Source of the DNA: Nonlabens ponticola
GTDB taxonomy: Bacteria; Bacteroidota; Bacteroidia; Flavobacteriales; Flavobacteriaceae
Assembly (NCBI RefSeq): GCF_003966335.1
Contig: NZ_CP034549.1
Span: forward strand, 900,001 to 932,000
DNA length: 32,000 nt
Direction of reading: 5' to 3'
Shown one piece after another: positions 1,513-28,454 of the stretch. The notes below the pieces were generated by a model. That model was given only the letters and a program-made list of their open reading frames with translations, was not told where the DNA came from and searched no databases. The translations under genes and the position numbers were made by a program. The first letter of the stretch is position 1. The number at the start of each line of letters is the position of its first letter.

Positions 1513-1534
1513 TTACGCTTTCGCGAAAGCGTAA
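1513..1534. repeat. 22-bp perfect palindrome TTACGCTTTCGCGAAAGCGTAA (family P1, intergenic copy)
   Basis: I read it directly and it is its own reverse complement. It lies between thyA and egtB. Confidence 0.95.
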
Positions 1535-1631
1535 TTACAAAAACCATATTGCATCGTTTAGGTCACGCCTTTAACGCCAGCTTAGCACATCGCCGTTTTT
1601 TCTTATAGCTACAATATTCTAACTTTGAGAG

Positions 1632-2801
1632 GTGAACCGACCAGAATCCTACCTAGACTTTTTCAATCAGACGCGTGCCGCTACTGAAAATCTATGCAAG
1701 CCACTAGCTACCGAAGATTATGTGGTGCAGCCCATCGTTGATGTGTCGCCGCCCAAATGGCATCTGGGTCACACGACCTGGTTTTTTGAGGAGTTCTTGC
1801 TAGTGCCTTATTTGCCGCATTACGAGCGTTATGATGAGCGCTATGCCTACGTTTTTAATAGTTATTATGAGAGTATGGGCAAGCGTGTGGTGCGCACTGA
1901 TCGTGGTAATTTATCACGGCCTAGTGTTGCAGATGTTTACAAATATCGAGCGCACGTCAATGAACATATGCAAAAGTTACTGGCGAGCGAGCTGGCTACT
2001 GACGCAATACCAGTGATCGAGATAGGCATACACCATGAAAAACAGCATCAGGAATTATTGATGACTGATATCAAGTATATCCTAGGTAACAATCCGCTAC
2101 TACCAAAATACGGTGAGGTAGATCATGAAGTTTTTGTAGAAAATCATGAGCAGGAATGGATCGAGATGCCAGACGGTATTTATCATATAGGTCATGATAC
2201 TAAAGAGTTTTGCTATGATAATGAGTTGCCTAGACATCGGATTTTTCTAGAGCCGTATGCGCTGAGCAACAAACTGGTCACAAACGCAGATTGGATGGAA
2301 TTCATGCAGGCTGGTGGATATACAGAGGTGTTGCTGTGGCACACTGAAGGTTGGGATTGGGTTTCCAAGAACAATATAGCAGCACCCAATTATTGGCATA
2401 ATGATGAAAACGGTGAGTGGTTCAACTACACACTTAATGGGTATGAAAAGATAAATCTTGAGGCTGCCGTAACGCACATTTCCTATTACGAAGCTTTTGC
2501 TTTTGCACAATGGAAAGGCCTGCGCTTACCAACGGAATTTGAATGGGAAGCTGCGCAGGACAAACTAGATTACGGCAAGCGTTGGGAATGGACTGAAAGT
2601 GCCTATTTGCCTTATCCCAATTATCAGAAACCAGACGGCGCGCTAGGTGAGTACAACGGTAAGTTCATGGTCAATCAAAAGGTATTGCGAGGATATTCTA
2701 TCGCGACGCCAGACCATCATGCGCGACCTACTTACAGAAATTTTTTCCATCCTTATCTTAGATGGCAATTTACTGGTCTAAGACTGGCCAAATCAATATG
2801 A
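1632..2801 (+). CDS. egtB: EgtB-like hercynine sulfoxide synthase (DinB-like N-domain plus FGE-sulfatase-like C-domain), short form
   Basis: The N-terminal DinB-type motifs are PPKWHLGHTTWFFEEF and IHHEKQHQELL. The C-terminal FGE-like motifs are RLPTEFEWE, WEWTESAYLPYPNY and RNFFHP..RWQFTGLRLA. The start is a GTG. The gene is coupled to an EgtD homolog. Confidence 0.8.
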   Translation: MNRPESYLDFFNQTRAATENLCKPLATEDYVVQPIVDVSPPKWHLGHTTWFFEEFLLVPYLPHYERYDERYAYVFNSYYESMGKRVVRTDRGNLSRPSVADVYKYRAHVNEHMQKLLASELATDAIPVIEIGIHHEKQHQELLMTDIKYILGNNPLLPKYGEVDHEVFVENHEQEWIEMPDGIYHIGHDTKEFCYDNELPRHRIFLEPYALSNKLVTNADWMEFMQAGGYTEVLLWHTEGWDWVSKNNIAAPNYWHNDENGEWFNYTLNGYEKINLEAAVTHISYYEAFAFAQWKGLRLPTEFEWEAAQDKLDYGKRWEWTESAYLPYPNYQKPDGALGEYNGKFMVNQKVLRGYSIATPDHHARPTYRNFFHPYLRWQFTGLRLAKSI

Positions 2802-3760
2802 CAAAACAAGAAATATTTAAAAAGGAATTTGAGCAGCACGTACACGATGGTCTCAAAGCTTTTCCTAAGTACCTGAGTTCAAAATACATCTATGACGATA
2901 AAGGCGACAAATTATTCCAGCAAATCATGGATTTGCCCGAATACTATCTTACGGGCGCCGAGTATAATATTATTAACAAGCACAAAGCTGATTTAAGAGA
3001 AACCTTCTCAAGCGATAACGGTTTTGATCTGATAGAATTGGGTGCTGGCGATGGTAAGAAAACCAAGGTCTTGCTCAAAGAGTTGGTAGATAACAAGGTG
3101 GACTTCAAATATATACCTATCGATATAAGTCAAAGTGCTATTGATGAATTGAGTAATTCTTTGACCGATTTGTTTCCATCGCTCGATGTACAAGGCGAGC
3201 AAGGAACCTATTTTAAGGTGTTGGAAAAGCTGTCGCAATACACACAGCGACCTAAGGTAATCTTGGTATTGGGTTCTAACATCGGGAATCTAGAACATGA
3301 GAATGCCATTGAATTCTTGACGCAACTCAAGGATATCATGAGTGATCACGACAGCTTGTTTATGGGTTTTGACCAGAAGAAAGATCCGTTGACGATACAG
3401 AATGCCTACAGCGATTCACAAGGTGTAACACAGGAGTTTAATCGTAATTTACTATATCGCATAAATAAAGAGATGAATGGCAACTTTCCTGTGGAGCAAT
3501 TTGAACATTGGGAAGCCTATGATCCAGAAACTGGAACCGCAAAAAGCTACCTCATCGCCACAGAACCTTGTGAGGTAGAAATAGCAGATCTCAATCTAGC
3601 GGTATCGTTCAAAAAATGGGAAACAATCCATACAGAAATCTCGCAAAAGTATGATGACGATATAGTAGAATGGCTTTCAAAAAAAGCAGGATTAACTATT
3701 GCAGAGATTTATGAGGATGACCGAAAATATTTCAAGAATTATCTTCTGAAAAGAGCATAA
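2798..3760 (+). CDS. egtD: L-histidine N-alpha-methyltransferase (EgtD family)
   Basis: Motifs present are KYLSSKYIYDDKGDKLFQQIMDLPEYYLTGAE, ELGAGDGKKT and YIPIDIS. I chose the ATG at 2798 (MTKQEIF) because it forms an ATGA overlap with the egtB stop at 2799-2801. The ORF-track start at 2762 would overlap egtB by 40 nt. Confidence 0.85.
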   Translation: MTKQEIFKKEFEQHVHDGLKAFPKYLSSKYIYDDKGDKLFQQIMDLPEYYLTGAEYNIINKHKADLRETFSSDNGFDLIELGAGDGKKTKVLLKELVDNKVDFKYIPIDISQSAIDELSNSLTDLFPSLDVQGEQGTYFKVLEKLSQYTQRPKVILVLGSNIGNLEHENAIEFLTQLKDIMSDHDSLFMGFDQKKDPLTIQNAYSDSQGVTQEFNRNLLYRINKEMNGNFPVEQFEHWEAYDPETGTAKSYLIATEPCEVEIADLNLAVSFKKWETIHTEISQKYDDDIVEWLSKKAGLTIAEIYEDDRKYFKNYLLKRA

Positions 3761-3762
3761 AA

Positions 3763-3790
3763 AAATCCCTAGACTTTCATCTAGAGATTT
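3763..3790. terminator. hairpin between convergent egtD and the M43 protease gene
   Basis: The arms are AAATCCCTAGA and TCTAGAGATTT, an 11-bp stem with one mismatch, around the loop CTTTCA. It is flanked by A and T runs, so it could act in both directions. Confidence 0.5.
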
Positions 3791-3809
3791 TAAATTACTT
3801 TGTCCTTTT

Positions 3810-4832: not shown

Positions 4833-4998
4833 TTGAGTAAGGGTTTTAAATTTTAATGATCGTGGAATATAAATATATCCTTAACCAAAACTTAACAACT
4901 AAAAATGTTTTTTATGAATCCTTTGAAATTTTGGCAAAATTGATGTCATTCATCGAGATTTTTAATAGTTCTATTTGTAACTTGAAAACAAAAAGAAC

Positions 4999-5280
4999 AT
5001 GAAAGCAATTTGGAACGATAAAGTAATTGCAGAAAGCGATGATACTAAAGTGGTTGAAAACAATCATTATTTCCCACAGGATTCTATTAAGAAAGAATTC
5101 TTCTCAAAAACAGATCATCATACCAATTGTCCATGGAAAGGCGTGGCTAGTTACTATACCCTAGAAGTTGACGGCGACAAGAATGAAAATGCAGCCTGGT
5201 ATTATCCTGAACCGAAAGACGCTGCTAAAGAGATTGAGGACCATGTGGCTTTCTGGAAAGGCGTGCAGGTAGTTGATTAG
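4999..5280 (+). CDS. DUF427 domain protein
   Basis: The 93-aa protein shows the pattern NCPWKGVASYY...AAWYYPEP...VAFWKGV, which is characteristic of DUF427. Confidence 0.75.
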   Translation: MKAIWNDKVIAESDDTKVVENNHYFPQDSIKKEFFSKTDHHTNCPWKGVASYYTLEVDGDKNENAAWYYPEPKDAAKEIEDHVAFWKGVQVVD

Positions 5281-5310
5281 TTGATAGTTGACAGTTGACA
5301 GTTGACAGTT
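5271..5310. repeat. tandem heptamer AGTTGA(T/C), 5 copies plus a partial one
   Basis: The sequence reads AGTTGAT-t-AGTTGAT-AGTTGAC-AGTTGAC-AGTTGAC-AGTT. It overlaps the last codons and stop of the DUF427 gene and extends into the convergent spacer. Confidence 0.85.
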
Positions 5311-5367
5311 TAAAGTTATGGGTTGTCAGGCGTTTAATGTTGAATGCAGCGCGCACTATCGCTTAAC

Positions 5368-7549: not shown

Positions 7550-7588
7550 AATTCAAAGGTGCATGATTTTGAACCGTCAGAAAAATCG

Positions 7589-7614: not shown

Positions 7615-7636
7615 TTTCATATCTTAGAAAGGGTCG

Positions 7637-7666: not shown

Positions 7667-8545
7667 ATGAAAAAACTAACTTTTTTATTGAGTGTTGTTG
7701 TTTATTTAGCTTTCGCGAAAGCTAACACAGCACGAGCACAACAAGAATTTAAAGGCGTTGCTTACTACACGAGCAAGACGACTTTTAAAATGAAAAAAGA
7801 TACCGCTAGTGTCAAGCAACAGGATCCTGAAAAGGCTGAAATGCAGGCGATGATTAGGGAGGCCTTCAAAAAAGGAAGCACCGCAGACTTTAAACTAGAA
7901 TTTTCTCAAACAGAGTCCATGTATGAGAAAGAGGTCGAGTTAGTGGCGCCAAAACCGTCAAGCGGCGCGAGCATCACTTTTTCATCTAGTGGACCAACAT
8001 CCAGCACCATTTATAAAAACTTGCAGGATCAGGAGTTTATCATGAAAGATCAAATCTTTGGTAAGGACTTTCTCATAACCGATAAATTAAAAACCTATCA
8101 ATGGCAACCTACTCAAGAGACAAAGCAGATAGGAAACTATACCTGCTATAAAGCTACTTACACGCCAGAGCTTACCGAGGAGCAGAAGAAAGCAAAAGAA
8201 GAGAAAAAAGAGGATGCCAAAAAAGGCAGCCTGTTTGCCCTAATGGATGATGTCGATCCTACTATCGAAGTATGGTACACTCCAGAAATTCCCATCGCCA
8301 ACGGTCCTGGTGAATATCATGGATTACCAGGTCTTATCCTTGAGGTCAAAGAGCGCAATACGATCCTTTTATGTACTAAAATCGTTATGAATCCAGAAGA
8401 GGATTTTGAAATTGATCAGCCTCGTGGTGGTAAGACAATTACTCAAGAAAAATTTGACGCCCTACAAAAGAAAAAAATGGAAGAGTATCAAAAGAAGAAC
8501 GGTACTAAGGGCTTTATAGTAAGAGAAGTGCGCACGTCAAATTAA
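7667..8545 (+). CDS. GLPGLI family protein (paralog 1)
   Basis: It has a signal peptide and the motifs QIGNYTCYKA, WYTPEIPIANGPGEYHGLPGLILEV and LLCTKI, which define the GLPGLI family. Confidence 0.85.
   Translation: MKKLTFLLSVVVYLAFAKANTARAQQEFKGVAYYTSKTTFKMKKDTASVKQQDPEKAEMQAMIREAFKKGSTADFKLEFSQTESMYEKEVELVAPKPSSGASITFSSSGPTSSTIYKNLQDQEFIMKDQIFGKDFLITDKLKTYQWQPTQETKQIGNYTCYKATYTPELTEEQKKAKEEKKEDAKKGSLFALMDDVDPTIEVWYTPEIPIANGPGEYHGLPGLILEVKERNTILLCTKIVMNPEEDFEIDQPRGGKTITQEKFDALQKKKMEEYQKKNGTKGFIVREVRTSN
7706..7725. repeat. P1 palindrome copy, TTAGCTTTCGCGAAAGCTAA, inside a CDS
   Basis: This 20-bp perfect palindrome encodes LAFAKAN in the signal-peptide region of GLPGLI paralog 1. Confidence 0.95.
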
Positions 8546-9586: not shown

Positions 9587-12355
9587 ATGAACAAACTCAT
9601 ACTATTACTAGCTGCAATGCTACTCACATCCATTGCGGCACATTCTCAAAATGTCAAAATCACTGGTATAGTAATTGACAGTGCAGGAACTCCATTACAA
9701 ATGGCAAATGTTATTGCTTACGGGTCCAATAAATCACTAGGCGCATTTGGTATTACTAATCAAGATGGTCGTTACCAATTGTTAGGTCTTAAAAAGGATA
9801 GTACCTACACGCTTAAAGTATCTTTCTTAGGCTTGCAGGCTACCGAAGAAAAAGTAGAAAAAATTCAAGAAGATCTAGTCAAAAACTTTGTTTTGCTAGA
9901 AGGCACCGACCAGCTGGACGCCGTGCAGATTACCTATGAAATGCCAGTCTCTATCAAAGGCGACACTATCGTCTATAATGCAGATAGTTTTACAAATGGT
10001 ACAGAGCGTAAACTCGACGATGTCCTAAATAAACTACCTGGCGTTGAGGTCAATGAAGATGGTGATGTGCAAGTAGAAGGAAAGAATGTAGAAAAGATCT
10101 ATGTGGATGGTAAGGAGTTTTTTGAAGGCGATACCAGATTAGCGACTAAAAATATTCCTGCAGACGCCATCGGTAAGGTTGAGGTACTTAAAAACTTCAA
10201 CAATGTGAGTCAGCTTAAAGGTCTAGGCAATGATCAAGACCGTGTGGCGATTAATATCAGGCTCAAAGAAGGAAAGGAGAAATTCTGGTTTGGCGAGGCA
10301 ACAGCAGCTGGCGGTTATGGTGGTGATGATTTTAGATATCAAGCACAGCCAAAGGCCTTTTATTATAGTCCCAATCTATCACTCAACTTCCTGACAGATT
10401 TTAATAATCTAGGGATTCCTGCATTTACAGGTCGCGATTACAATAGGTTTACAGGTCAGCGTTTTAGTAACACTAGTGATGCTGGTGTAAATGTAAATAC
10501 CAATTCAAACGGTGGTAGACTGACCACATTTCAAAACAACCGCGCATTAGAGATAGAGAGTAGATTTGGTGCATTTAATGGCGCATATCAAGTAAATAAA
10601 AGTCTTGGAATTAATGCTTTTGCTATTTTCTCCAGTGTAGATACTGATGCACGTACCGATAGTAGAAGATTTTTCACACCAGCTGATGAGAGCTTGGCAG
10701 CATCTTCTCGAGCTCCACTAACTGAATTTACTGAAGACCTAACCTTTCAACGTAATGAGCAAGCCATCTTTAAAGTAGGCGCAGACTATAAGCCTAATGA
10801 CAATTTTACGCTGGATTTCAACGGCCAGGTAAACATTGCCGATAATACAGAGCGGTCTGCGTTAATCTCTGATCGTGTTGAGATCAATAGAGAAACAGGT
10901 GATCCAGAAAGAATCATTGAAGACGTGGCACAGCGAGATGCACAAAAGCCAATCGTCATTGATCAAAATTTAAACATGTACTATACTGCGAGCGACCGTA
11001 ATATTTTTGCATTTGAAGGTCGCTATGTTGATAGCGAGGAAGATCCTTTTTACAACGCGGTAAGAGATTTTAGAGATCAACAAGATCCAGAACCATTTAA
11101 TGGACGATTGAATCTAGACAATGCAGATCCTTACAACATCAATCAGCGTAATCTTGTGGATACCCGACGTATCAATGCTAAGGTTGATTACTGGTACGTG
11201 CTTAACAAAATAAGCAACATCAACTTCACTGTAGGTACGATCCAGTCGCGTCAAGATTATAACAGCAATATTTTTCAAATACTTGATAACGGCGGCGTCA
11301 ACATTCTTACCGATGATGATCTTGTCAACGATGTGCGATATGATTTTAGCGATATATATGCTGGCGTCCATTACAAAATCATCAAAGGGAAATTTACCAT
11401 CACCCCAGGATTTAATGTACACCAGATTGAAACAGATACTGATGACCTGTTGAGTGATAATGATCAAACCATTTCTACAACAGAGTTCTTACCCGATTTC
11501 AACATACGGTATGACTTTAGATCATCAGAGAGCTTAAGAGCAGACTATCGCCAGGTGATCAATTTTGCAGACGTCAATAGCTATGCAGAAAGTCTTGTCT
11601 TTAACAACTACAACTCTTTAAGTAGAGGTAACAATAATTTGTCAGGAGCTAAAACTGATCAGTTCTCATTAAACTATAACAATTTTAATATGTTTAATTA
11701 TACTAACATATTTGCCTTTGTGACTTACAGCAAGCAGCGCGAGGCCTTGCAGAATAGCGTTGAGTTAGATGGTATCAATCAAGTTAATACAACGATCAAT
11801 TCGCCATTGGCTAATGAGTCTGTCAATGGTACTGGTAGAATCACAAAAGAATTTGGTAAGATTAGAACAGGTTTGAGAGCAACACTCAGCTACAGTTTGT
11901 TCAACAACATTATTAATGATCAGGCTCAAGAGTCAGAAAACTTCAATCAAACCTATGCGGTCGATTTGCGCAGTAATTATCAAGAAGGTGTCAACTTTGA
12001 TGTCAGCTACAGTTACAATTTGAGCAATAACGATCAAGGCTCGCGCACAACCCAGTTTACCACACACAGGATCAATCTAGGCGCAGATTGGCAAATAGGT
12101 GATGCATGGCAATTAACGGCAGACTATGACTTGAACCTCTTTAGAGGTGAAGGACAAGACAATAATTTTGATTTTCTTGAAGCTGCCTTATACTATCAGC
12201 AGCCAGATAGTCAGTGGGAATTCAAACTAGCGGGAACTAACCTTTTAGGTACTGAGGCTTTTGTCTCTAATAATTTTGGTCAAATCATCACATCAACTAC
12301 AGAGCAGTTTGTATTGCCTAGATACGTCTATTTACAAGTACAGTATGAATTATAG
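9587..12355 (+). CDS. outer-membrane beta-barrel protein with an N-terminal CarboxypepD_reg-like domain (TonB-dependent-receptor-like)
   Basis: After the signal peptide comes a CarboxypepD_reg-like segment (ITGIVIDSAGTPLQMANVIA...GRYQL). A plug-like segment follows (DDVLNKLPGVEVNEDGDVQVEGK...IYVDGKEF). The rest is a long barrel rich in N, D, Y and F. Confidence 0.85.
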   Translation: MNKLILLLAAMLLTSIAAHSQNVKITGIVIDSAGTPLQMANVIAYGSNKSLGAFGITNQDGRYQLLGLKKDSTYTLKVSFLGLQATEEKVEKIQEDLVKNFVLLEGTDQLDAVQITYEMPVSIKGDTIVYNADSFTNGTERKLDDVLNKLPGVEVNEDGDVQVEGKNVEKIYVDGKEFFEGDTRLATKNIPADAIGKVEVLKNFNNVSQLKGLGNDQDRVAINIRLKEGKEKFWFGEATAAGGYGGDDFRYQAQPKAFYYSPNLSLNFLTDFNNLGIPAFTGRDYNRFTGQRFSNTSDAGVNVNTNSNGGRLTTFQNNRALEIESRFGAFNGAYQVNKSLGINAFAIFSSVDTDARTDSRRFFTPADESLAASSRAPLTEFTEDLTFQRNEQAIFKVGADYKPNDNFTLDFNGQVNIADNTERSALISDRVEINRETGDPERIIEDVAQRDAQKPIVIDQNLNMYYTASDRNIFAFEGRYVDSEEDPFYNAVRDFRDQQDPEPFNGRLNLDNADPYNINQRNLVDTRRINAKVDYWYVLNKISNINFTVGTIQSRQDYNSNIFQILDNGGVNILTDDDLVNDVRYDFSDIYAGVHYKIIKGKFTITPGFNVHQIETDTDDLLSDNDQTISTTEFLPDFNIRYDFRSSESLRADYRQVINFADVNSYAESLVFNNYNSLSRGNNNLSGAKTDQFSLNYNNFNMFNYTNIFAFVTYSKQREALQNSVELDGINQVNTTINSPLANESVNGTGRITKEFGKIRTGLRATLSYSLFNNIINDQAQESENFNQTYAVDLRSNYQEGVNFDVSYSYNLSNNDQGSRTTQFTTHRINLGADWQIGDAWQLTADYDLNLFRGEGQDNNFDFLEAALYYQQPDSQWEFKLAGTNLLGTEAFVSNNFGQIITSTTEQFVLPRYVYLQVQYEL

Positions 12356-12409: not shown

Positions 12410-12452
12410 TTACGCTTTCCTTCCTGTCCGACAGGCAGGCGCGAAAGCATAA
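12410..12452. repeat. P1 palindrome split at its centre by a degenerate P2-like palindrome
   Basis: The sequence reads TTACGCTTTC + cttCCTGTCcGACAGGcaggc + GCGAAAGCATAA. It lies between convergent genes. Confidence 0.8.
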
Positions 12453-14495: not shown

Positions 14496-14515
14496 TTGCT
14501 TTCGCGAAAGCGTAA
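14496..14515. repeat. P1 palindrome copy, TTGCTTTCGCGAAAGCGTAA (intergenic)
   Basis: The 14-bp core at 14498-14511 is perfect. It lies upstream of the rimK operon. Confidence 0.95.
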
Positions 14516-16885: not shown

Positions 16886-17420
16886 AGCAAAACGTGCTGC
16901 CTTAACTCTAGATGAAGTTCAGGAAAAAAGTATCGCAATTGCTAATCAATTACTGCGATTAGATATCTGGAATCACGCCAATTACCATCTTTTCCTACCT
17001 ATTGAAAAAAGTAATGAAGTAGATACTGCTCATATTTTAAATATTCTACAGGGTAGAGATAAGAATGTAATCCTATCGCGATCTAATTTTAATGATGGCA
17101 CGATGCAACATTATTTATTAACGGATAGTACCAAGCTAGTCGTCAATAAATATGGCATTCCAGAACCAGATGAAAATGCCATTGAATTTCCTGTAGATAA
17201 AATCAATGTCGTTTTTATACCATTGTTAGTGGCTGATCTTAATGGTCATCGAGTAGGTTATGGTAAAGGTTTTTACGATCGTTTTTTAATCAATTGTCAA
17301 CCAAACACGCAATTCATCGGTTTGTCATTTTTTGAACCAATAGAATCGATCGAGGATATCTATACTGGCGACGTGCCTGTCAACCAATTGATTACGCCGG
17401 CAAATACCTTTAATTTCTAG
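16851..17420 (+). CDS. 5-formyltetrahydrofolate cyclo-ligase
   Basis: The N-terminus (K..LR..YR.KR) and the motif PLLVADLNGHRVGYGKGFYDRFL are typical of MTHFS. It overlaps the upstream gene by 35 nt. Confidence 0.85.
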   Translation: MKTKSRLRQVYRAKRAALTLDEVQEKSIAIANQLLRLDIWNHANYHLFLPIEKSNEVDTAHILNILQGRDKNVILSRSNFNDGTMQHYLLTDSTKLVVNKYGIPEPDENAIEFPVDKINVVFIPLLVADLNGHRVGYGKGFYDRFLINCQPNTQFIGLSFFEPIESIEDIYTGDVPVNQLITPANTFNF

Positions 17421-18634: not shown

Positions 18635-19045
18635 ATGGCAACACCGCTAGTTCCCAAAGTATGTATTATTGATGATGATCGATTATATGTAAGTCTTATC
18701 GGCATGCTTCTAGAGAAGCATCACATCGCTGACCAATTTACAGTTTTTGAAAATGGTGCAGTAGCAATTGATCATTTCAAGGAGATCTTTGAGTCAAACG
18801 ATACTCAAGAATTACCCGATGTAATCCTGCTTGACTTAAATATGCCCGTCATGAATGGATGGGAATTTCTAGACAATATAGAGCCATATGCGTCGCAATT
18901 ACTAGAGAGTGGCGTTCGCTTAAATGTCGTAAGTTCTACCATAAATCCTGAAGAAGTTAAGAGAGCGCAGGAACATTCCATCGTGCATCACTTCATCACA
19001 AAGCCCATTTCTAAAGAGGCTATCATGCGAGCCGTAAAGGATTAA
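18635..19045 (+). CDS. single-domain response regulator (receiver only)
   Basis: Receiver motifs are IIDDD, LLDLNMPVMNG and ITKP. There is no output domain. It starts 10 nt after the kinase stop. Confidence 0.88.
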   Translation: MATPLVPKVCIIDDDRLYVSLIGMLLEKHHIADQFTVFENGAVAIDHFKEIFESNDTQELPDVILLDLNMPVMNGWEFLDNIEPYASQLLESGVRLNVVSSTINPEEVKRAQEHSIVHHFITKPISKEAIMRAVKD

Positions 19046-19068: not shown

Positions 19069-19090
19069 TTACGCTTTCGCGAAAGCGGAA
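19069..19090. repeat. P1 palindrome copy, TTACGCTTTCGCGAAAGCGGAA (intergenic, between convergent genes)
   Basis: The 14-bp core is perfect and there is one mismatch in the outer arm. Confidence 0.95.
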
Positions 19091-19113: not shown

Positions 19114-19731
19114 TCAAGCACCTTTCTTTTCTGGAAAGGCCTTTTTGCTAAAAAGGATGAGAAGCACTACGCCTACAGATATGGCGCTATCTGCAACATT
19201 GAATACCGCGTTGAAGAATGAAAAACTTTGACCACCGACTATTGGAATCCAGCTAGGCCAAATACCGTCAAAAAGCGGAAAGTACAGCATGTCCACTACC
19301 TCACCGTAAAACCAGGAACTGTAGCCACCACCTTCAGGCATAAAGGTCGCCACACTGTGTGCGCTATCTGAAAATATGACGCCGTAGAAAACACTGTCTA
19401 TGATATTTCCCACAGCTCCAGCAAAAATTAACGAGATACACACGATAAGAATCTTGTGACTGTTGTCTCTTACACTCTTCCATAACCAGTAGGCAATACC
19501 AAAGCAGGCAAAAATTCTGAACACCGTAAGTATGATTTTACCATAATCACCAGGAATCTCAAAACCCCATGCAGCACCAGCATTTTCATAAAACAATAAT
19601 TGGAACTTATCCCAATCAACAATAGGATTGCGCGAGTCGCGCAGCATGTAATTAAGTTTGATATAAATCTTACTCGCTTGATCCACAAATAGGACAGCAA
19701 TAATGATAAGAATGGCTTTGTATAATTTCAT
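19114..19731 (-). CDS. lspA: lipoprotein signal peptidase (signal peptidase II)
   Basis: Motifs present are VDQASK, ENAGAAWGF, GAVGNIIDSVFYG, VVDMLYF and FNVADSAISVGV. Confidence 0.9.
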   Translation of the reverse strand: MKLYKAILIIIAVLFVDQASKIYIKLNYMLRDSRNPIVDWDKFQLLFYENAGAAWGFEIPGDYGKIILTVFRIFACFGIAYWLWKSVRDNSHKILIVCISLIFAGAVGNIIDSVFYGVIFSDSAHSVATFMPEGGGYSSWFYGEVVDMLYFPLFDGIWPSWIPIVGGQSFSFFNAVFNVADSAISVGVVLLILFSKKAFPEKKGA

Positions 19732-20814: not shown

Positions 20815-23800
20815 CTATTTCTTATTAATCGCAAGGATTGTTTCTATATCGTCAAACTCAATTTCTGTACCGTTTTCTATACTGTCAACGATATCAAGTG
20901 AATCTGCTAGAGTTTCATCCTTTATATATTGTTCATTTGTTTTAAGAGCGTTGTCCATCGCTGGATGCGACTGCACTGTAATATCTATACGATCGGTCAC
21001 TTCTAAACCTGTGTCCTTACGTAGGTTTTGTAATCGATTGACGAGTTCTCTAGCGATGCCTTCTTCCTTTAACGCTGGTGAGATTTGTATATCAAGCGCC
21101 ACCGTTGTTCCAGACTGGTTGGCAACAAGCCATCCTTCAATATCTGATGATGTAATCTCCACATCATCTAGCGTCAAAGAAATGTCATTTCCGTTCAGAT
21201 TAATGATTTTCTCGCCTGTTTTTTCTAACAATGCGATGTCCTCTTGTTGAAAACCTTTGATCAATCCAGCCACTTTGCCCATATCCTTGCCAAAACGTGG
21301 TCCCAAAGTCTTGAAATTAGGTTTGATTTCTTTGACTAGAATACCACTGGTATCATCGATTAACTCAATCTCCTTGACATTTACTTCACTTTTTACAAGA
21401 TCAGCAATCGCTTCGATTTGTTCTTTTTCCGTTTGATCCAATATTGGTATCATGATGCGCTGCAGTGGTTGGCGCACCTTGATGCTTTCTTTTTTACGCA
21501 ATGAAAGCGTCAAGCTAGAAATCACTTGAGCCTTATGCATTTTACTTTCCAGCTCTGTATTAATCAAGCTTTCATCAACTTTAGGAAACATAGATAAATG
21601 CACACTCTCGCTAGCATCGTTTTCGCAAACACTAGTCAAATCTTTATAAAGCTGATCCATAAAGAAAGGCGCGATAGGTGCTCCCAACTGTGCGACCGTC
21701 TTTAAACAAGTATAGAGCGTCTGGTAGGCTGCTATTTTATCTTGCTGATAATCACCTTTCCAGAAACGTCTCCTGCACAATCGCACGTACCAGTTACTCA
21801 AGTTTTCCGTCACAAACGTGGTAATAGCTCTGGCTGCTTTGGTAGGTTCATAATCTTCATAGAATTCCGTCGTTTCCTTTATCAGTGTGTTCAGCTCTGA
21901 TAGAATCCAGCGGTCTATTTCTGGTCGTTCGTCTGTTGGGATTACGCTTTCGCGAAAGCTGAACCCATCAACATTTGCATACAAAGCAAAAAAGCTATAG
22001 GTATTGTAAAGTGTTCCAAAAAACTTGCGCTGAACTTCGGTAATGCCATCCAGATCAAACTTGAGATTATCCCAAGGATTTGCATTGCTTACCATATACC
22101 ATCGTGTGGCATCGGCGCCAAATTTGCCCAACGTATCAAATGGATCAACGGCATTGCCTAATCGCTTGGACATTTTCTGGCCGTTCTTGTCCAACACCAG
22201 ACCGTTCGAAACCACATTTTTATAGGCCACATCATCACTTATCATGGTAGCAATAGCGTGCAGCGTGTAGAACCAGCCGCGTGTTTGATCAACACCTTCG
22301 GCAATGAAGTCTGCCTTGCGCAGTTCATTTTCTACCTTTTCCTTGTTCTCAAATGGGTAGTGCCATTGCGAGTAGGGCATGGAACCACTATCAAACCAGA
22401 CGTCAATAAGATCTGCCTCACGAGTCAGCTTCTCGCCATTTTGTCCTACTAGGTAGATATCATCCACAACATTTTTGTGCAGATCAACAAGGTCATAGTT
22501 TTCCTCGCTCATGTCGCCAGCCTTGAAGCCAGCAAAAGGATTTGATGTCATGAAACCAGCTGCGATGGATTTCTCAATTTCAGCAACCAATTCTTCAATA
22601 GAACCTATGATCAGTTCTTCAGTTCCAGTCTCGTTGCGCCAGATAGGTAGCGGAATACCCCAGAATCTAGATCTTGAAAGGTTCCAGTCGTTTGCATTGG
22701 CCAGCCAGTTCCCAAAGCGTCCTTCACCAGTAGATTTAGGCTTCCAATTGATTTGCTTGTTCAACTCGTGCATGCGGTCCTTAAACTCGGTCACTTTAAT
22801 GAACCAACTGTCTAGCGGATAGTACAGTACAGGCTTGTCAGTTCTCCAACAATGCGGGTAACTGTGTACATATTTCTCGACCTTAAAGGCGCGGTCATCT
22901 TCTTTCAATTTTATGGCGATGTCTACATCAACAGATCGCTCTGGTGCCTCGCCTGCATTGAAGTATTCGTTTTTCACGTATTTGCCACCTATTTCTGGTA
23001 ACTCCTCACGGAATTTCCCTTGAAGGTTCACCAGCGGCACTGGATTATTATTCTCATCCAGCACCAACATCGGCGGTATAGGCGGATTTGCCTGTTTAGA
23101 AACTAGCGCATCGTCTGCACCAAAAGTTGGCGCCGTATGCACGATTCCAGTTCCGTCTTCAGTCGTCACAAAATCACCAGAAATGACTCTAAACGCATCT
23201 TCTGCATTTTGGTAAGGCGTCGCATAGTCGAGTAACTGATCGTAGCGTGTGTTCACGAGATCACTTCCCTTGCAGCTGGCAAGTACGCGATATGGTATTT
23301 TCTTGTCAGAAAGTTGGTAGGCTTGTTTTGCTTTCGCGAAAGCGTCACTGTCAACAACATTCTCGTACTTTTTACTAAACTGGTAACTCACCAACTTTTC
23401 AGCAATGATCACCTGCATAGGCTGGCCAGTGTATTGATTGAAAGTCTCAACCAGCACGTAATCTATTTTGGGACCCACGGTCAGAGCTGTGTTGGACGGC
23501 AGCGTCCATGGTGTGGTCGTCCAGGCAAGGAAGAAGACCTCGCCAGAAGTCTCAAAAGGTAATTGTGATGTATCAGAAACTTTGAATTGTGCCGTCACTG
23601 TGGTATCGGTCACATCTTGATAGGTTCCTGGCTGGTTCAACTCATGCGAACTCAAACCAGTTCCTGCAGCAGGTGAGTACGGCTGGATGGTGTAACCTTT
23701 ATACAGCAAATCCTTAGAATAGATCTGCCTGAGCAACCACCAGACGCTCTCCATGTATTTAGGCTTGTAGGTAATGTATGGATCTTCCATATCTACCCAA

Positions 23801-24225
23801 TAGCCCATGTCGTCAGTGAGTTTGCTCCAGATGTCTGTGTATTTTAACACGGCATCTTTACAGGCCTGATTGTATTCTTCTACACTTATTTTGGTGCCAA
23901 TGTCTTCTTTGGTAATGCCCAGTGCTTTTTCAACGCCTAATTCTACAGGCAAGCCGTGCGTATCCCAACCAGCCTTGCGGTTTACCTGATAACCTTGCTG
24001 TGTTTTAAAACGGCAAAAAAGATCCTTGATCGTACGACCCATCACGTGGTGAATACCAGGCAATCCATTGGCAGACGGTGGTCCTTCAAAGAAAATAAAA
24101 GGCTCATTGCCCTCACGAGTCGTCATGGACTTGTTGAAGATGTCGTTCTCCTTCCAGAAAGTCTTGATGCGTTCATCAACTTCTGGTAGGTTTAACCCTT
24201 TGTATTCCTTGAATTTAGTACTCAT
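20815..24225 (-). CDS. ileS: isoleucine--tRNA ligase (type 2, long form)
   Basis: It carries the HIGH-type motif (PSANGLPGIHHV) and KMSKR. The length is about 1136 aa. I preferred the start at MSTKFKEYKG (24225) over the ATG three codons upstream (24234). Confidence 0.97.
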   Translation of the reverse strand: MSTKFKEYKGLNLPEVDERIKTFWKENDIFNKSMTTREGNEPFIFFEGPPSANGLPGIHHVMGRTIKDLFCRFKTQQGYQVNRKAGWDTHGLPVELGVEKALGITKEDIGTKISVEEYNQACKDAVLKYTDIWSKLTDDMGYWVDMEDPYITYKPKYMESVWWLLRQIYSKDLLYKGYTIQPYSPAAGTGLSSHELNQPGTYQDVTDTTVTAQFKVSDTSQLPFETSGEVFFLAWTTTPWTLPSNTALTVGPKIDYVLVETFNQYTGQPMQVIIAEKLVSYQFSKKYENVVDSDAFAKAKQAYQLSDKKIPYRVLASCKGSDLVNTRYDQLLDYATPYQNAEDAFRVISGDFVTTEDGTGIVHTAPTFGADDALVSKQANPPIPPMLVLDENNNPVPLVNLQGKFREELPEIGGKYVKNEYFNAGEAPERSVDVDIAIKLKEDDRAFKVEKYVHSYPHCWRTDKPVLYYPLDSWFIKVTEFKDRMHELNKQINWKPKSTGEGRFGNWLANANDWNLSRSRFWGIPLPIWRNETGTEELIIGSIEELVAEIEKSIAAGFMTSNPFAGFKAGDMSEENYDLVDLHKNVVDDIYLVGQNGEKLTREADLIDVWFDSGSMPYSQWHYPFENKEKVENELRKADFIAEGVDQTRGWFYTLHAIATMISDDVAYKNVVSNGLVLDKNGQKMSKRLGNAVDPFDTLGKFGADATRWYMVSNANPWDNLKFDLDGITEVQRKFFGTLYNTYSFFALYANVDGFSFRESVIPTDERPEIDRWILSELNTLIKETTEFYEDYEPTKAARAITTFVTENLSNWYVRLCRRRFWKGDYQQDKIAAYQTLYTCLKTVAQLGAPIAPFFMDQLYKDLTSVCENDASESVHLSMFPKVDESLINTELESKMHKAQVISSLTLSLRKKESIKVRQPLQRIMIPILDQTEKEQIEAIADLVKSEVNVKEIELIDDTSGILVKEIKPNFKTLGPRFGKDMGKVAGLIKGFQQEDIALLEKTGEKIINLNGNDISLTLDDVEITSSDIEGWLVANQSGTTVALDIQISPALKEEGIARELVNRLQNLRKDTGLEVTDRIDITVQSHPAMDNALKTNEQYIKDETLADSLDIVDSIENGTEIEFDDIETILAINKK
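21942..21959. repeat. P1 palindrome copy inside ileS (TTACGCTTTCGCGAAAGC)
   Basis: It is read on the minus strand as SFRESV, in the context VDGFSFRESVIPT. Confidence 0.95.
23330..23343. repeat. P1 palindrome core inside ileS (GCTTTCGCGAAAGC)
   Basis: It is read on the minus strand as AFAKA, in the context DSDAFAKAKQAY. Confidence 0.95.
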
Positions 24226-24248
24226 AACCACCATTATATTAAGGTGGG

Positions 24249-24256
24249 CAAAAATA
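24249..24256 (-). promoter_or_regulatory. candidate -7 box for ileS (TATTTTTG on the minus strand)
   Basis: It is an exact match to TAnnTTTG and lies 15-24 nt upstream of the two candidate ATGs. Confidence 0.35.
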
Positions 24257-24340
24257 GTAGATTTAAACGGGACGATAAAGTTTAATGCACTGTGAGAAAG
24301 CGCATTTTCTTGTGTCGCATTTAGGACTATGAATTAAGAT

Positions 24341-25522
24341 CTACACCTGCGTTTCCATTTCTCTAACCTGCGCCATTTTATTCTTGAAAATCACAGCAGC
24401 GCTGGTATAACCACCTTCAGTTCCATCTACAAAGTGGATATGATTATCCTTTCTGTCTTGCACATAACAACTCATCACGGATGCGTGCGTGCTATGGATG
24501 CCATAAACGATCTTTCCTTCACGTTCCAGCAGGTCTAGATAATTTGTCAACGCCTCGATTTGTCCAGCATCACCTTCCATAACTGTATTAAGGGAACCAT
24601 CAAACATGATGGTGTCAGACAATTGGCTCACTTTATTTAGGTATTCCTTGCCTTCCTTGAAATAGGTGAAATAGAACGTGCCAAAATAGGTGATCAACCA
24701 GTGTTTCAATAAATAGTCCAGCTTGCTCTTACCTATGCGCGCAATCATTTCTTTCTTGATTTTGGAAATGGTTGCTTTCAGTTTCAGACGGTTGGTATTG
24801 ATGGGCTGCCTGCGCTCTAGTGAACCAAATAGCAGGAATATAATATCCATGATATCGGCATAGATCTCGGCTTGTTTTGATTGATCCTCACAATTAACTA
24901 GCAGGCAAACCACCTTATGTTTCTGGTCACGTGGCGATATCTCATCCCAACGGCATTCCATACCAGTAAGGTCGATTGCAGGCGAATTATTTTCAAAAAT
25001 AGATTCCTGCTTAAATTCTGCCTTTATCAAACTCTCTGCATATTTCAAGCCGTTGCCCAAAACGATAGGTATGGTCAAATAACTGTTGATCTTTGCCTTG
25101 GCAATTCTCAATAAATGACGCTCATCGTACACCTTTTGCACCTTGATACTACCTATGCGCAAGTTTAGTTTGAGATTGTTCTTGACGTGAGACTTATAAT
25201 TGTATAAGGCAGACATGACGCGTGCATGCACATCTGCAGGAATCAAAAAGGTCACGCCATCACCGCCAAAAAAATACGGAATCTCATGATTGCGCAATTG
25301 ACTCTTGACCGTGTTGATCACCGTCACAACGCTACCGGTCGCTGCCAGATTGACCTCATTATGCATGCCTTTTTGAACCGCACGCGTGCTTTGCGCAACG
25401 TCTGCTACTACCACATGCCAGTCATGTGGTACCGCGGTAAAATTCTGCGGCTTACGTAAAATCTTACGTATAGGCGCATATTTTGTCTTCAAAGAAGAAT
25501 AAAAATAACGTGTGTCTTCCAT
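24341..25522 (-). CDS. DUF3095-like protein with a palm-type nucleotide-cyclase-like N-domain
   Basis: The 393-aa protein has an N-terminal HVVVADVAQST (D41) and YFFGGDGVTFLIP (G86-G89). These resemble the two metal-Asp strands of GGDEF or class III cyclase palm domains. The DUF3095 assignment is from memory. Confidence 0.6.
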   Translation of the reverse strand: MEDTRYFYSSLKTKYAPIRKILRKPQNFTAVPHDWHVVVADVAQSTRAVQKGMHNEVNLAATGSVVTVINTVKSQLRNHEIPYFFGGDGVTFLIPADVHARVMSALYNYKSHVKNNLKLNLRIGSIKVQKVYDERHLLRIAKAKINSYLTIPIVLGNGLKYAESLIKAEFKQESIFENNSPAIDLTGMECRWDEISPRDQKHKVVCLLVNCEDQSKQAEIYADIMDIIFLLFGSLERRQPINTNRLKLKATISKIKKEMIARIGKSKLDYLLKHWLITYFGTFYFTYFKEGKEYLNKVSQLSDTIMFDGSLNTVMEGDAGQIEALTNYLDLLEREGKIVYGIHSTHASVMSCYVQDRKDNHIHFVDGTEGGYTSAAVIFKNKMAQVREMETQV

Positions 25523-25669
25523 CGTACATTTAAGTACGTAAATGTATCAGCACAGATATTTTACAAAATCCTAATTAACTAATTATTAAATATCTAGAGT
25601 ATCGATGCACAGATCGTGGTTTTAAGGGCGTTTTTCCCAAAATTTTTGGGGATCGGGCTATACGCTACA

Positions 25670-25691
25670 ACCTGCCTGCTGGCAGGCAGGT
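25670..25691. repeat. P2 palindrome copy, ACCTGCCTGCTGGCAGGCAGGT
   Basis: It is near-perfect, with a 9-bp stem and a CTGG centre. It is preceded by CGCTACA. Confidence 0.9.
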
Positions 25692-25733
25692 CTTTTTTAG
25701 GTTTCATTAACCAAAAAAAGGATTTCCGCTACT

Positions 25734-25755
25734 ACCTGCCTGCCGGCAGGCAGGT
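25734..25755. repeat. P2 palindrome copy, ACCTGCCTGCCGGCAGGCAGGT (perfect, 22 bp)
   Basis: It is its own reverse complement. It is preceded by CGCTACT and lies 64 bp from the first copy. Confidence 0.95.
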
Positions 25756-25774
25756 CCCTAACGCAAGAAAAGTT

Positions 25775-25876
25775 AAACTCAAACTTGAATTAGAACTTTA
25801 ATTCGCACTTGAAATGTGAACCTGAATTAGCATGACATGAACTATTAGTCTCTCTGAATTTATTTCAGAGTCTTCC
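25775..25876. repeat. composite repeat, copy C: hexamer-phased tract plus hairpin A
   Basis: The hexamer tract runs from 25775 to 25828 (AAACTC AAACTT GAATTA GAACTT ...). Hairpin A is CTCTGAA-tttat-TTCAGAG at 25852-25870. It lies downstream of the helicase gene. Confidence 0.75.
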
Positions 25877-25994
25877 TAATTAATAGAGATCTTTTTAGAG
25901 GATGACATTAAACTTAATTTCTGATTCATCTTCAAGTTCGCTTTCAATTTCCTAAAGAGTATCATTAGAAATTTAAGAGACAGCGTTATTTCAA

Positions 25995-28454
25995 TCATTC
26001 CCACTTCAGCTGCATGCGCTTGATACGATCTGCTAATTTCTCGCTGCTCAGTTTTTCGCGCAAGCGGTCTGTAATAATAGGGAATGAAAAAGGCGTTGGT
26101 TTTTCACAGGCTTTCCAGACAATTTCTTGATTTTGAATGCGCACCAGCGCTTCACGTAGACGATATTCTTCAATAGCTTGCTCAAAAGTTTCCGTATAGG
26201 CTTGTTTGAAAAGCAAGTTGTCTGGCTCGTTATCTCTAAAAACTTCAAAAAGAAGCTGACTGCTATTCTGTAAGTGAGCTGTTTTAATAGCCTTGTTTGG
26301 ATAACCCGTAAATACAAGCCCAGAGATCACCGCAATATCACGGAATTTCCTTCTGGCCATTTCAGTCGCATTCATGCTGGATTGCAAGTCCTCAGTAAGC
26401 ATGTCTGGTGTTAGCAGGTCATTATCCAGCACCTCTTGCATATCAAACGGCTGATCACTCAATAGTTCAAAACCATAATCATTGAATGCAATCGAGAACG
26501 TAATAGGTTTTAATAAACTGATGCGGTAAGCGATGATGCCTGACATAGCCTCGTGAACAAATCTGCCTTCAAAAGGATAGAACACCGCATGATAGCCTTC
26601 ACGAGTTTTAAAAGTCTCTATCAAAAATTGATGTTTTTGCGGTACGATACTTTCCAATTGCTGCCGCTGGATAATTTCTTTGAGGGCTTTGACTTCTGGT
26701 GTGCGTTTCTTTCCCGTCTGGAAGTTTTCCATCTCGTCACGCAGCAGCTCGCCTAGTTGTGCACTCAACGGTAAGCGGCTGCCTTGCCAATTAGATACTG
26801 TATTAGTTTTTTTAGTCGAATTGCGCACTTGCGCCACCATGCCTTTGAGTCTAATGAATTCCAGTGTTCTTCCAGCAAAAACAAACACATCGCCACGATC
26901 CAGTTTGCTGATGAAATACTCTTCAACTGATCCTATGTAACCACCAGTTTGATATTTCACGGTGACCGTTGTCGCGCCGACTATGGTTCCCATTTGCAAG
27001 CGATGGCGCATGGCGATGGCCTTGCTGTCTATGTAATACCTACCATCATCATCAATGCTTACTTTTTTATACTCATCATAAGATTGCAACGAGGCACTAC
27101 CGTAAACGATAAAATTGAGGCACCATTTCCATTCCTCATCGGTTATACTAGCATAACAAAATGTGTTTTTGACCTCAGGAAAAATATTGTCGGGATAAAA
27201 ACCTCCTGAAACAGCCAGCGTACATAAGTATTGAATCAGTACATCGTAGCATAGTAAATAGGGCAATCGATCTTCAACCGCCTGACTAGAAACGGCCTTT
27301 TGCAAAGCACTTGCTTCAATCAGTTCCAGCGCATGAGTAGGCAGGAAGTGAATCATACTGGTCTCGCCAGGCCTGTGACCTGATCTGCCTGCACGTTGTA
27401 AAAATCGCGCAACACCTTTGGGGCCACCTACCTGGATAATGGTTTCCACTGGCGCAAAATCCACACCTAGATCCAGTGATGAGGTACAAACACAGGCTTT
27501 TAATGACTCATTTCTTATCGCATTTTCTACCCAAACACGCGTTTCTTTATTGATGGAACCGTGATGCATGGCCACTTCACCCGCAAACTCTGGATGCTTA
27601 GACATAAGTGATTGAAACCAAAGCTCACATTGCGCTCTGGTATTTGTAAATATGAGTGTTGACCGACTGGAATTGATGATCTCGACAACATTTTTTAGCA
27701 AATGCAACCCTAAATGACCGCGCCATGGGAATTTATCCATGCTTTCAGGTATGATGGATTGCACGGTGATGTCTTTTTTGAGATTGGCTTTTATGAGTAC
27801 GCTTTCGCGAAAGCGTGACTCGTCAACACCCAATAACACTTGTCTGGCTTGCTCTAGATTACCGATGGTCGCACTAATACCCCAAATCTTGATCTGCGGA
27901 TTAAGTCCCAAAAGTCGCGAAACGCCCAATTCCATTTGCACGCCGCGTTTGGTTCCTAGCAGTTCATGCCACTCGTCTACCACTATGGTGCTGCAATCCC
28001 TGAAGATGCGCTCATGATCTTTGGAACCCAGCATGAGATGCAGACTCTCTGGTGTGGTGATCAGTAAATCAGGCATGGATCGCATCTGTGCGGCGCGTTC
28101 TTTTGTTGAAGTGTCGCCACTGCGTATGCCTACTGTAAATGGTAGGCCGATACCATCCACAAATCGCTGGGATGCTTGCGATATTTCCTGAGAAAGCGAG
28201 CGCAAAGGTGTGATCCAAATAGCCTTGAGACCTTTTTTGGGCTTCTTCTTGTAGTCAGGATTTTCCTTGATGTATTTAAGAACAATCGCCACCCAGAGCG
28301 CATAAGTTTTACCACTACCCGTTGGTGCGTTGAGCAGCCCGTGCTTACCAGCCAACAACGCTTCCCATGTCTTTTTCTGAAACGGAAAACTCGTCCAGCC
28401 TTGCTGCTGGAAATAACTTTCGGCTATATGGAAGAGTTCTTTTTTTGTCATCAT
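25995..28454 (-). CDS. ligase-associated DNA damage response DEXH-box helicase (Lhr-core-like)
   Basis: Helicase motifs are motif I (NAPTGSGKT), motif II (VDEWH), SAT, TSSLDLGVD and QRAGRSGH. The C-terminal part resembles a DEAD-associated domain. The gene is adjacent to the ligase and the MBL exonuclease. Confidence 0.92.
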   Translation of the reverse strand: MMTKKELFHIAESYFQQQGWTSFPFQKKTWEALLAGKHGLLNAPTGSGKTYALWVAIVLKYIKENPDYKKKPKKGLKAIWITPLRSLSQEISQASQRFVDGIGLPFTVGIRSGDTSTKERAAQMRSMPDLLITTPESLHLMLGSKDHERIFRDCSTIVVDEWHELLGTKRGVQMELGVSRLLGLNPQIKIWGISATIGNLEQARQVLLGVDESRFRESVLIKANLKKDITVQSIIPESMDKFPWRGHLGLHLLKNVVEIINSSRSTLIFTNTRAQCELWFQSLMSKHPEFAGEVAMHHGSINKETRVWVENAIRNESLKACVCTSSLDLGVDFAPVETIIQVGGPKGVARFLQRAGRSGHRPGETSMIHFLPTHALELIEASALQKAVSSQAVEDRLPYLLCYDVLIQYLCTLAVSGGFYPDNIFPEVKNTFCYASITDEEWKWCLNFIVYGSASLQSYDEYKKVSIDDDGRYYIDSKAIAMRHRLQMGTIVGATTVTVKYQTGGYIGSVEEYFISKLDRGDVFVFAGRTLEFIRLKGMVAQVRNSTKKTNTVSNWQGSRLPLSAQLGELLRDEMENFQTGKKRTPEVKALKEIIQRQQLESIVPQKHQFLIETFKTREGYHAVFYPFEGRFVHEAMSGIIAYRISLLKPITFSIAFNDYGFELLSDQPFDMQEVLDNDLLTPDMLTEDLQSSMNATEMARRKFRDIAVISGLVFTGYPNKAIKTAHLQNSSQLLFEVFRDNEPDNLLFKQAYTETFEQAIEEYRLREALVRIQNQEIVWKACEKPTPFSFPIITDRLREKLSSEKLADRIKRMQLKWE
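27799..27816. repeat. P1 palindrome copy inside the helicase gene (ACGCTTTCGCGAAAGCGT)
   Basis: It is read on the minus strand as RFRESV, in the context VDESRFRESVLIK. Confidence 0.95.

Follow-up and report, generated by a model that had tools for sequence, protein, structure and literature searches.

A highly iterated palindrome of Nonlabens and Dokdonia and its possible role as a DNA signal

Why does one perfect palindrome recur, letter for letter, both in the spacers and inside the genes of a flavobacterium? The question is raised by a 32,000-nt stretch of Nonlabens ponticola DNA (NCBI RefSeq contig NZ_CP034549.1, positions 900,001–932,000 of the forward strand; below, "the window" is this whole stretch, and coordinates are counted from its first letter). 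The exact 14-mer GCTTTCGCGAAAGC occurs in it seven times, at 1517, 7709, 14498, 19073, 21946, 23330, and 27801. An initial annotation, made from the letters of the window, had listed these positions together with an eighth copy split at its center, and all eight are confirmed here. The reading that we favor, giving it about even chances, is that the 14-mer is a highly iterated palindrome particular to the Nonlabens/Dokdonia branch of Flavobacteriaceae and may serve as a protein-recognized DNA signal in uptake and/or recombination.

Words iterated throughout a genome, e.g., the highly iterated palindrome HIP1, the DNA uptake sequences (DUS) and uptake signal sequences (USS), and Chi, are rare, and each has informed the understanding of DNA uptake, repair, or chromosome organization.

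Abundance and taxonomic range

The 14-mer is found in none of 100 dinucleotide-preserving shuffles of the window (zero expected), and Markov models of order 1 and order 3 yield 1e-5 to 1e-4 expected copies per 23–32 kb; the earlier statement that the repetition is far from chance is borne out. Variants of the 14-mer with one or two mismatches are absent from the window, while matches with at most three mismatches number 12 vs. 1.3 expected.

The sample assembled independently of the motif, comprising the window and six 23-kb loci anchored on ileS orthologs (172 kb), contains 34 copies, vs. about 5e-4 expected under the Markov models. This corresponds to approximately one copy per 5 kb and extrapolates to roughly 600 copies per genome. 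We also scanned genomes, one per species, and obtained at least 120 blocks of 8 kb, each chosen for having a copy. Among the 120 blocks listed, 91 belong to Nonlabens, Dokdonia, and related or unclassified (mostly Flavobacteriaceae) genomes and carry 1–3 copies per 8 kb, often 2–3; the other 29 contain single matches from unrelated, mostly GC-rich taxa, at chance level and lacking the flank signature described below. Both Nonlabens and Dokdonia are rich in the motif, which elsewhere is found at chance level only. The possibility considered at the outset, that the enrichment is limited to this window and the frequency otherwise lies near expectation, does not hold, the motif being clade-wide.

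Neither the 14-mer nor the second palindrome described below is reported in the literature searched, and no highly iterated palindrome or specific uptake-sequence motif is linked there to Flavobacteria. We found no earlier description of an iterated palindrome in marine flavobacteria, although it resembles known kinds such as HIP1.

Maintenance of the core, its flanks, and the origin of copies

In the flavobacterial set, copies with zero, one, and two mismatches number 151, 13, and 14, respectively. Compensatory variants of the palindrome stem number zero, and so does the swapped arrangement GCGAAAGCTTTCGC. Extra half-sites GCGAAAGC are observed 19 times vs. 4 expected and look mostly like decayed copies. 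A half-site or sub-site as the real unit was considered and rejected, given the zero counts of swapped and compensatory forms and the counts of the sub-sites outside the palindromes, where TCGCGA (20 vs. 19–20 expected) and CGCG (210 vs. 208–290 expected) are neither enriched nor avoided.

Conservation is seen at synonymous sites and in spacers. The codons that encode AFAK in IleS, GCT TTC GCG AAA, do not differ among the five compared species having this peptide; over the whole of IleS, positions with the same amino acid share the codon at a frequency of 0.51, and no Ala codon is rarer than GCG. Orthologs of the intergenic copy at 14498 are present in six Nonlabens genomes, with a single mismatch in one of these genomes, and the spacer around them is otherwise unalignable. 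Four of the five intact window copies of the region shared with Nonlabens sp. Hel1_33_55 (L126) are conserved there, a small sample. These comparisons indicate that the copies are kept letter-perfect by a sequence-specific force.

The N. arenilitoris sequence (L122) contains one perfect copy (13899) and four one-mismatch copies (5131, 10880, 19683, and 22744), the latter at sites where other species have perfect copies. The ratio of perfect to one-mismatch copies, 1:4 here vs. 33:9 in the other six sequences (Fisher p = 0.017), suggests that the force keeping copies perfect has relaxed in this lineage; such loss may offer a comparative route to the responsible protein.

Preferences extend beyond the core, (C)GCTTTCGCGAAAGC(G), with C at position –1 in 81% of copies and T preferred at positions –3 and –4. 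Over about 18 nt, G and T dominate the 5' flank of either strand (C about 7%, range 4–9%), and by symmetry the 3' flank is A/C-rich (G 5–10%). The skew is alike in non-coding copies and in each reading frame, is common to viral copies and to both genera, and differs slightly in its preferences between Nonlabens and Dokdonia. It overrides synonymous codon choice: among NNY codons, those ending in C make up 10% upstream of the core and 56% downstream (background 29%), and among NNR codons, those ending in G make up 56% upstream and 15% downstream (background 31%). A coding artefact is ruled out by the presence of the skew in non-coding copies, in three frames, and at synonymous sites. An extended hairpin is rejected as well: pairing is no stronger between native flanks than between chimeric ones, whether scored ungapped or by minimum free energy (–15.6 vs. 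–15.6 kcal/mol); hence, the flanks represent strand-specific composition and not an extended or copy-specific stem.

Nearest-neighbor folding of the single strand as DNA gives –2.1 kcal/mol for the 14-mer and –7.3 kcal/mol for the 22-bp form of the palindrome. The 3' half of the core is, on either strand, GCGAAAGC; d(GCGAAAGC) forms an ultra-stable, exonuclease-resistant mini-hairpin of single-stranded DNA that excludes the single-strand binding protein and is found in the priming origin of phage G4 (Hirao et al.; review PMC13037366). The full unit is a dyad-symmetric element of about 50 bp, made up of an invariant 14–16 bp core and skewed flanks. A strand-specific flank (G/T vs. A/C) that prevails over synonymous codon choice points to a single-strand step and provides a testable handle; in the literature examined, we found no description of such a skew for HIP1.

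Open frames of at least 150 codons hold 103 of the 151 flavobacterial copies (68%), vs. 86% of random positions, while 33 copies lie in non-coding-like DNA; by crude calls of open reading frames (ORFs), the intergenic density of copies is 3.7-fold above the coding density. The coding copies are read as AFAKA (58), FRES (26), or LSRK (19). The use of only two reading frames, noted in the initial annotation, was a small-sample effect, while its likening of the motif to HIP1 or DUS/USS rather than to classical repetitive extragenic palindromic (REP) elements is supported by the large share of copies in long open frames. Its placement of intergenic copies at gene ends does not generalize: tandem, divergent, and convergent spacers hold 34, 16, and 5 copies, the same proportions as in intergenic DNA itself (62, 25, and 12%), and no REP-like or terminator-like placement is seen among the intergenic copies.

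Alignment of orthologs, a check proposed by the initial annotation, bears on two of the coding sites. At the FRES site of ileS, sequences with the motif read F-[SRC]-FRES and those without it F-[TK]-Y-[SDN]-E-[AK], at equal length, which argues for an origin by substitution. The FRES copy is patchy among Nonlabens IleS, and two close relatives (L121 and L124) differ solely in GCTTTCGCG vs. GCTATAGCG, i.e., in 2 nt, with identical flanks. At the lhr site, outgroups have xESKALENSVL and Nonlabens VDxxRFRESVL, 11 residues in both cases (ALENS vs. RFRES), and Lhr intermediates are graded from RYDNS through RFNNS and RFDES to RFRES. As far as alignments can tell, copies at these two sites arose by substitution without change of length.

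Window copies, insertions at the core, and a second palindrome

The IleS encoded in the window is 100% identical to the N. ponticola protein, whose contig measures 2.87 Mb. The window, as mapped with Pfam, contains thyA, an EgtB-like gene, two Porph_ging genes, a TonB-type barrel gene, a DUF2071 gene, the rimK operon, lspA, ileS, a DUF3095 gene, and genes for an Lhr helicase and an ATP-dependent ligase; the gene contexts initially proposed for all eight copies are right, and Pfam detects no transposase or REP-associated tyrosine transposase (RAYT) in the window, as had been stated. The full 22-bp palindrome TTACGCTTTCGCGAAAGCGTAA, to which several copies were said to extend, is found only in copy 1; the perfect palindrome measures 22, 20, 18, and 16 bp in one copy each and 14 bp in three.

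Copy 1 (1513–1534) is intergenic, 125 nt after the stop codon of thyA and about 100 nt before an EgtB-like ORF, and has a G/T-rich 5' side and an A/C-rich 3' side. Copy 4 (14498–14511) is also intergenic, the RimB-like/rimK operon beginning about 60 nt downstream, and copy 5 (19072–19087, 16-bp perfect palindrome) lies between a receiver-domain gene (ending at 19045) and the convergent lspA (ending at 19114). Two copies lie within ileS (20815–24234, minus strand), namely copy 6 (21946–21959), read as (S)FRES, and copy 7 (23330–23343), read as AFAKA. Copy 8 (27799–27816, 18-bp perfect palindrome) lies within the gene for the ligase-associated Lhr helicase (25995–28454, minus strand) and is read as RFRES. 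A probable decayed copy, GCCTTTGCGAAAGT (28907–28920, three mismatches), is found within the gene for the ATP-dependent DNA ligase; its ortholog is a one-mismatch copy in L126 (5467) with matching flanks.

Copy 2 (7706–7725, 20-bp perfect palindrome) lies within a Porph_ging/GLPGLI-family ORF (7667–8545, plus strand), where it codes for the end of the signal peptide, ...VVVYL-AFAKA-NTA. The same pattern of a signal peptide ending in AFAKA is seen in the orthologous gene at about 13.9 kb in L121, L122, L124, L125, and L288. Such sites, frequent in the AFAKA frame, consist of a hydrophobic stretch, AFA|KA, and a polar stretch rich in Q, S, and T (as at 7709 of the window), and signal-peptide ends already have the G/T-to-A/C switch of composition favored by the motif.

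Copy 3 (12410–12452), in the spacer of the convergent beta-barrel and DUF2071 genes, is split into a left arm TTACGCTTTC and a right arm CGCGAAAGCATAA. It consists of TTAC-GCTTTC (12410–12419), a 20-nt insert CTTCCTGTCCGACAGGCAGG (12420–12439), and CGCGAAAGC-ATAA (12440–12452); its ortholog in Nonlabens sp. Hel1_33_55 (L126, 21394) is a one-mismatch copy. The insert is a variant of a second palindrome family, CCTGCCTG..CAGGCAGG. Two further copies are split at the center GCTTTC^G by unrelated inserts (L289, about 10650–10720 in lhr and about 17010–17060). The center-splitting inserts, that of the window included, are 20–34 nt long, and some form hairpins; with three such splits, the core center also appears to be a recurrent insertion point.

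The second family, CCTGCCTGC(Y)GGCAGGCAGG = CCTGCCTGCCGGCAGGCAGG, is separate from the 14-mer. In the window, it is represented at 25670–25691 and 25734–25755 (within 25656–25756) by ACCTGCCTGC(T/C)GGCAGGCAGGT in the spacer of lhr and the DUF3095 gene, each copy being inside a 37-nt direct-repeat unit with a CGCTAC tag (GTAG on the other strand). At three places, the second palindrome is inserted in frame (18–27 nt) exactly at GAAA^GC of the 14-mer: in ileS of one relative, at the mirror position in ileS of another, and in lhr of that second relative; the copies in relatives are at 12273–12299 of L123 and at 7978–7997 and about 10880–10897 of L124. The exact 20-mer of the second palindrome has at least 120 metagenome matches (L167–L286), on contigs whose GC content ranges between 29% and 71%; some of the matches fall in fragments of tRNA genes.

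A gene for a 135-aa RAYT-like Y1_Tnp protein, annotated as RayT by JGI, is present in the lig-lhr-ileS neighborhood of two relatives (L289, 12584–12991; L288, 7105–7512). In L289, it lies directly between lhr and ileS, and in the equivalent interval of the window (24235–25994) the DUF3095 gene and the two second-family palindromes stand in its place. The RAYT-like genes of both relatives are flanked by inverted CCTAACGGCAGACTTAAGTCTGCCGTTAGG or GGGCAGAATKYATTCTGCCC, never by the 14-mer.

Other repeats are found nearby. A 36-nt direct repeat CGTATCTCGAnTGTCGCTCGAnACTGGA, 86% identical and partly palindromic, occurs at 28555–28590 (spacer of lhr and the ligase gene) and at 29296–29331 (DNA ligase ORF); the length of the DNA ligase varies among relatives from 547 to 588 aa. 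AT-rich repeats similar to AAACTTGAATTAGAACTT, with a period of about 12 nt, are found in spacers at 25769–25814 and 30397–30430 and in the DNA ligase ORF at 29198–29231, and many copies of the second palindrome in metagenomes have comparable short tandem-like motifs next to them.

Competing explanations and known systems

Under the favored reading, the core would be recognized as DNA by a symmetric (dimeric), clade-specific protein. At the FRES site of ileS and at the lhr site, copies arose through point substitutions or very short tracts of conversion in tolerant sequence, places of this kind being protein loops, signal-peptide ends, and spacers. The motif would mark "own" DNA for uptake and/or initiate or stimulate homologous recombination; and copies would accumulate through the resulting drive plus selection. 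Uptake and/or recombination is the most likely role given the strand-specific flanks, according to which the strand running 5'-to-3' into the core seems to matter. Such a role is established for DUS/USS and Chi and is now being proposed for HIP1, a conserved word with possible Chi- or uptake-like activity (PMC5861425; bioRxiv 10.1101/2024.09.10.611283); the one precedent for preferential uptake is Riemerella columbina, in whose transformation own DNA is preferred (PMC7965970). If uptake or recombination is indeed involved, the motif placed on donor DNA could ease the genetics of Nonlabens and Dokdonia, as HIP1 does for Synechococcus.

Several observations weigh against a role in uptake or recombination, or limit the evidence for it. 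We identified no binding protein, methylase, or competence system, and Nonlabens and Dokdonia are not known to be naturally transformable. Both DUS and USS are asymmetric words of 9–12 bp, and Chi sites are oriented and 5–8 nt long; we know of no precedent for a perfect palindrome of 14–16 bp as either. The density of one copy per 5 kb is below that of DUS/USS (about one per kb). The AFAKAK of IleS makes the protein four residues longer than outgroups, and certain lhr alleles have the palindrome, together with its skewed flanks, inside expanded loop sequence, so that insertion is possible for some copies. The 151 flavobacterial copies come from blocks selected for having a copy, with genes called there by crude ORF heuristics, and the decay in N. 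arenilitoris is seen in 23 kb only.

The main rival, itself unlikely, is a site of chromosome architecture, with the palindrome bound by an abundant protein of the nucleoid or of DNA topology (gyrase-like, SMC- or ParB-like, or clade-specific) that has no role in uptake or recombination. Dyad symmetry, strict sequence, conservation, and even scatter all agree with it; a nucleoid role was argued for HIP1 by Xu et al. 2018 (PMC5861425), and similar proposals exist for REP elements and the mosaics that they form (BIME). A protein binding the duplex has, however, no obvious need for 18-nt strand-specific G/T vs. A/C flanks. The evidence from phages is mixed. The cultured lytic Nonlabens phage P12024S (L290, 35.7 kb) contains no copy even at two mismatches, which fits a function restricted to the chromosome. 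On the other side are 40 stretches of viral contigs containing the 16-mer (L130–L166 among their labels): several low-GC contigs of uncultured flavobacterial siphoviruses, with tape-measure, portal, and major-head genes, carry 2–6 copies at positions conserved among related contigs and with the flank skew of the bacterial copies. The nearest cultured relative of the copy-bearing contigs is a Cellulophaga phage.

We consider it distinctly unlikely, although conceivable, that the palindrome is a bidirectional, structure-assisted recombination site, i.e., a "palindromic Chi" or self-break site. A symmetric enzyme would break or stall at the core; the 3'-ended strand there would have a GCGAAAGC mini-hairpin tip, whose formation here is only predicted; and an 18-nt G/T-rich tract, suited to RecA, would follow directly behind the tip. 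RecA prefers G/T-rich tracts. This mechanism would account for the rotationally symmetric keto/amino skew of the flanks, and the recurrent insertions at GAAA^GC and GCTTTC^G fit it. To our knowledge, no palindromic or hairpin-type Chi is known.

Each of the four remaining explanations (REP/RAYT mobility, methylation-linked repair, an RNA hairpin, and selection for a peptide) fails at least one direct test. The first, quite improbable, assumes a miniature mobile element, either REP-like (including REP doublets, REPINs) or a miniature inverted-repeat transposable element, with a Y1 transposase (RAYT or IS200-type) recognizing the hairpin and TTAC and inserting the palindrome together with its flanks. 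The TTAC/GTAA flank resembles the target tetranucleotide of IS200/IS605-type elements (cf. IS608). The higher intergenic density, the RAYT-like genes of relatives, and the extra sequence in the lhr loops and at AFAKAK of IleS are in line with such an element. Intragenic REPs are known (PMC3733652). It does not explain the unchanged length at the ileS FRES and lhr RFRES sites, the close relatives that are 2 nt apart, or the conserved IleS codons that fall within the skewed flanks. The palindrome is, moreover, perfect and untagged, most of its copies lie in ORFs, and it is other palindromes that flank the RAYT genes. Close pairs of the palindrome enclose ordinary genes (PGK, patatin, DEAD helicase, TolC-like protein, and similar), and a search for RAYT homologs, of limited sensitivity, retrieved only 22 close relatives, none of them named N. 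ponticola.

A very improbable explanation is that near-matches are perfected by a methyltransferase with biased repair of the very-short-patch kind, or by restriction-modification, acting on TCGCGA or CGCG. The core contains both sub-sites, as the initial annotation had pointed out, perfect copies far outnumber near-matches, and several one-mismatch variants are CpG transitions; HIP1, too, contains methylase sub-sites (PMC4390886). The suggestion gains nothing from the sub-sites outside the palindromes, which are at Markov expectation, and a repair specificity covering 14–16 bp and 18-nt flanks is implausible for a methylase-linked system. For HIP1, conservation favors selection over biased repair (Xu et al., PMC5861425).

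A hairpin acting in RNA, as terminator, mRNA stabilizer, or processing site, is highly improbable, even though the 22-mer folds well as a single strand (the value above being for DNA) and three window copies are downstream of genes or between convergent ones. Intergenic copies are spread over spacer types as intergenic DNA is, the polarity of the flanks (T-rich upstream, A-rich downstream) is opposite to that of a bidirectional terminator, most copies lie within ORFs, essential ones included, compensatory variants do not occur, and the window has no Rfam match.

Selection for a peptide, be it AFAKA as a signal-peptidase site or FRES, with an incidental palindrome, is effectively refuted: about 12 of the 61 AFAKA-frame copies listed do form the AxA end of signal peptides, and nearly all Nonlabens do share AFAKAK in their IleS, but the ancestral-peptide alternative named in the initial annotation does not hold, because a single DNA word is conserved in three frames, at fixed synonymous positions, and in non-coding, intergenic copies.

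A DNA signal of the kind favored here can be compared with several known systems. The d(GCGAAAGC) mini-hairpin is known at single sites in phage origins, whereas the flavobacterial palindrome is iterated genome-wide and its hairpin is only predicted. An intrinsic bidirectional terminator is a GC-rich hairpin followed by a T-run after genes, unlike the arrangement here, T/G-rich upstream and A/C-rich downstream on both strands. REP elements and the REPIN–RAYT system, including intragenic REPs and the palindromic elements of Rickettsia (RPEs), share with the motif the form of a short GC-rich hairpin and a copy number in the hundreds; certain REPs sit in frame within genes of repair and replication, and RAYT genes are present in relatives of this genome. 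REPs, however, are imperfect palindromes with a GTAG or CGTC tag at one end; most are extragenic, close to the 3' ends of genes, and intragenic ones bring additional length, while the flavobacterial palindrome is perfect, has symmetric TTAC...GTAA flanks, is mostly intragenic, and is not the repeat that flanks RAYT genes.

Chi, the site of RecBCD/AddAB, is similar in density (about one per 5 kb in E. coli), in being mostly intragenic and taxon-specific, and in the G/T-rich composition of the strand that ends 3' at a break beyond the site. It differs in being short (5–8 nt), asymmetric, and co-oriented with replication, the flavobacterial motif being a palindrome of 14–16 bp.

DUS of Neisseria and USS of Pasteurellaceae are, likewise, clade-specific words that occur in genes as well as in spacers; mismatched copies are far fewer than perfect ones, copies within coding sequence come about by substitution where the protein tolerates it, the consensus runs into compositionally biased flanks, and related genera have dialects. 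Their words are asymmetric, 9–12 bp long, and denser (about one per kb vs. one per 5 kb), unlike the palindromic flavobacterial core of 14–16 bp, and their hosts are demonstrably competent, with a known receptor (ComP for DUS).

HIP1 of cyanobacteria (GCGATCGC) is also a perfect palindrome, exceeds Markov expectation by orders of magnitude, occurs within and between ORFs in all frames, and is conserved at orthologous sites beyond background; recent hints of transformation and of Chi-like recombination for HIP1 extend the parallel. HIP1 is unlike the flavobacterial motif in its length (8 bp), its phylum, its unrelated sequence, and its density, which reaches one per gene; HIP1 sub-sites are recognized by orphan methyltransferases. 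The flavobacterial motif has 18-nt strand-specific flanks on each side. HIP1 is unexplained after 30 years, and the flavobacterial palindrome, longer and more specific, provides an independent example in the abundant and ecologically important marine Flavobacteriaceae.

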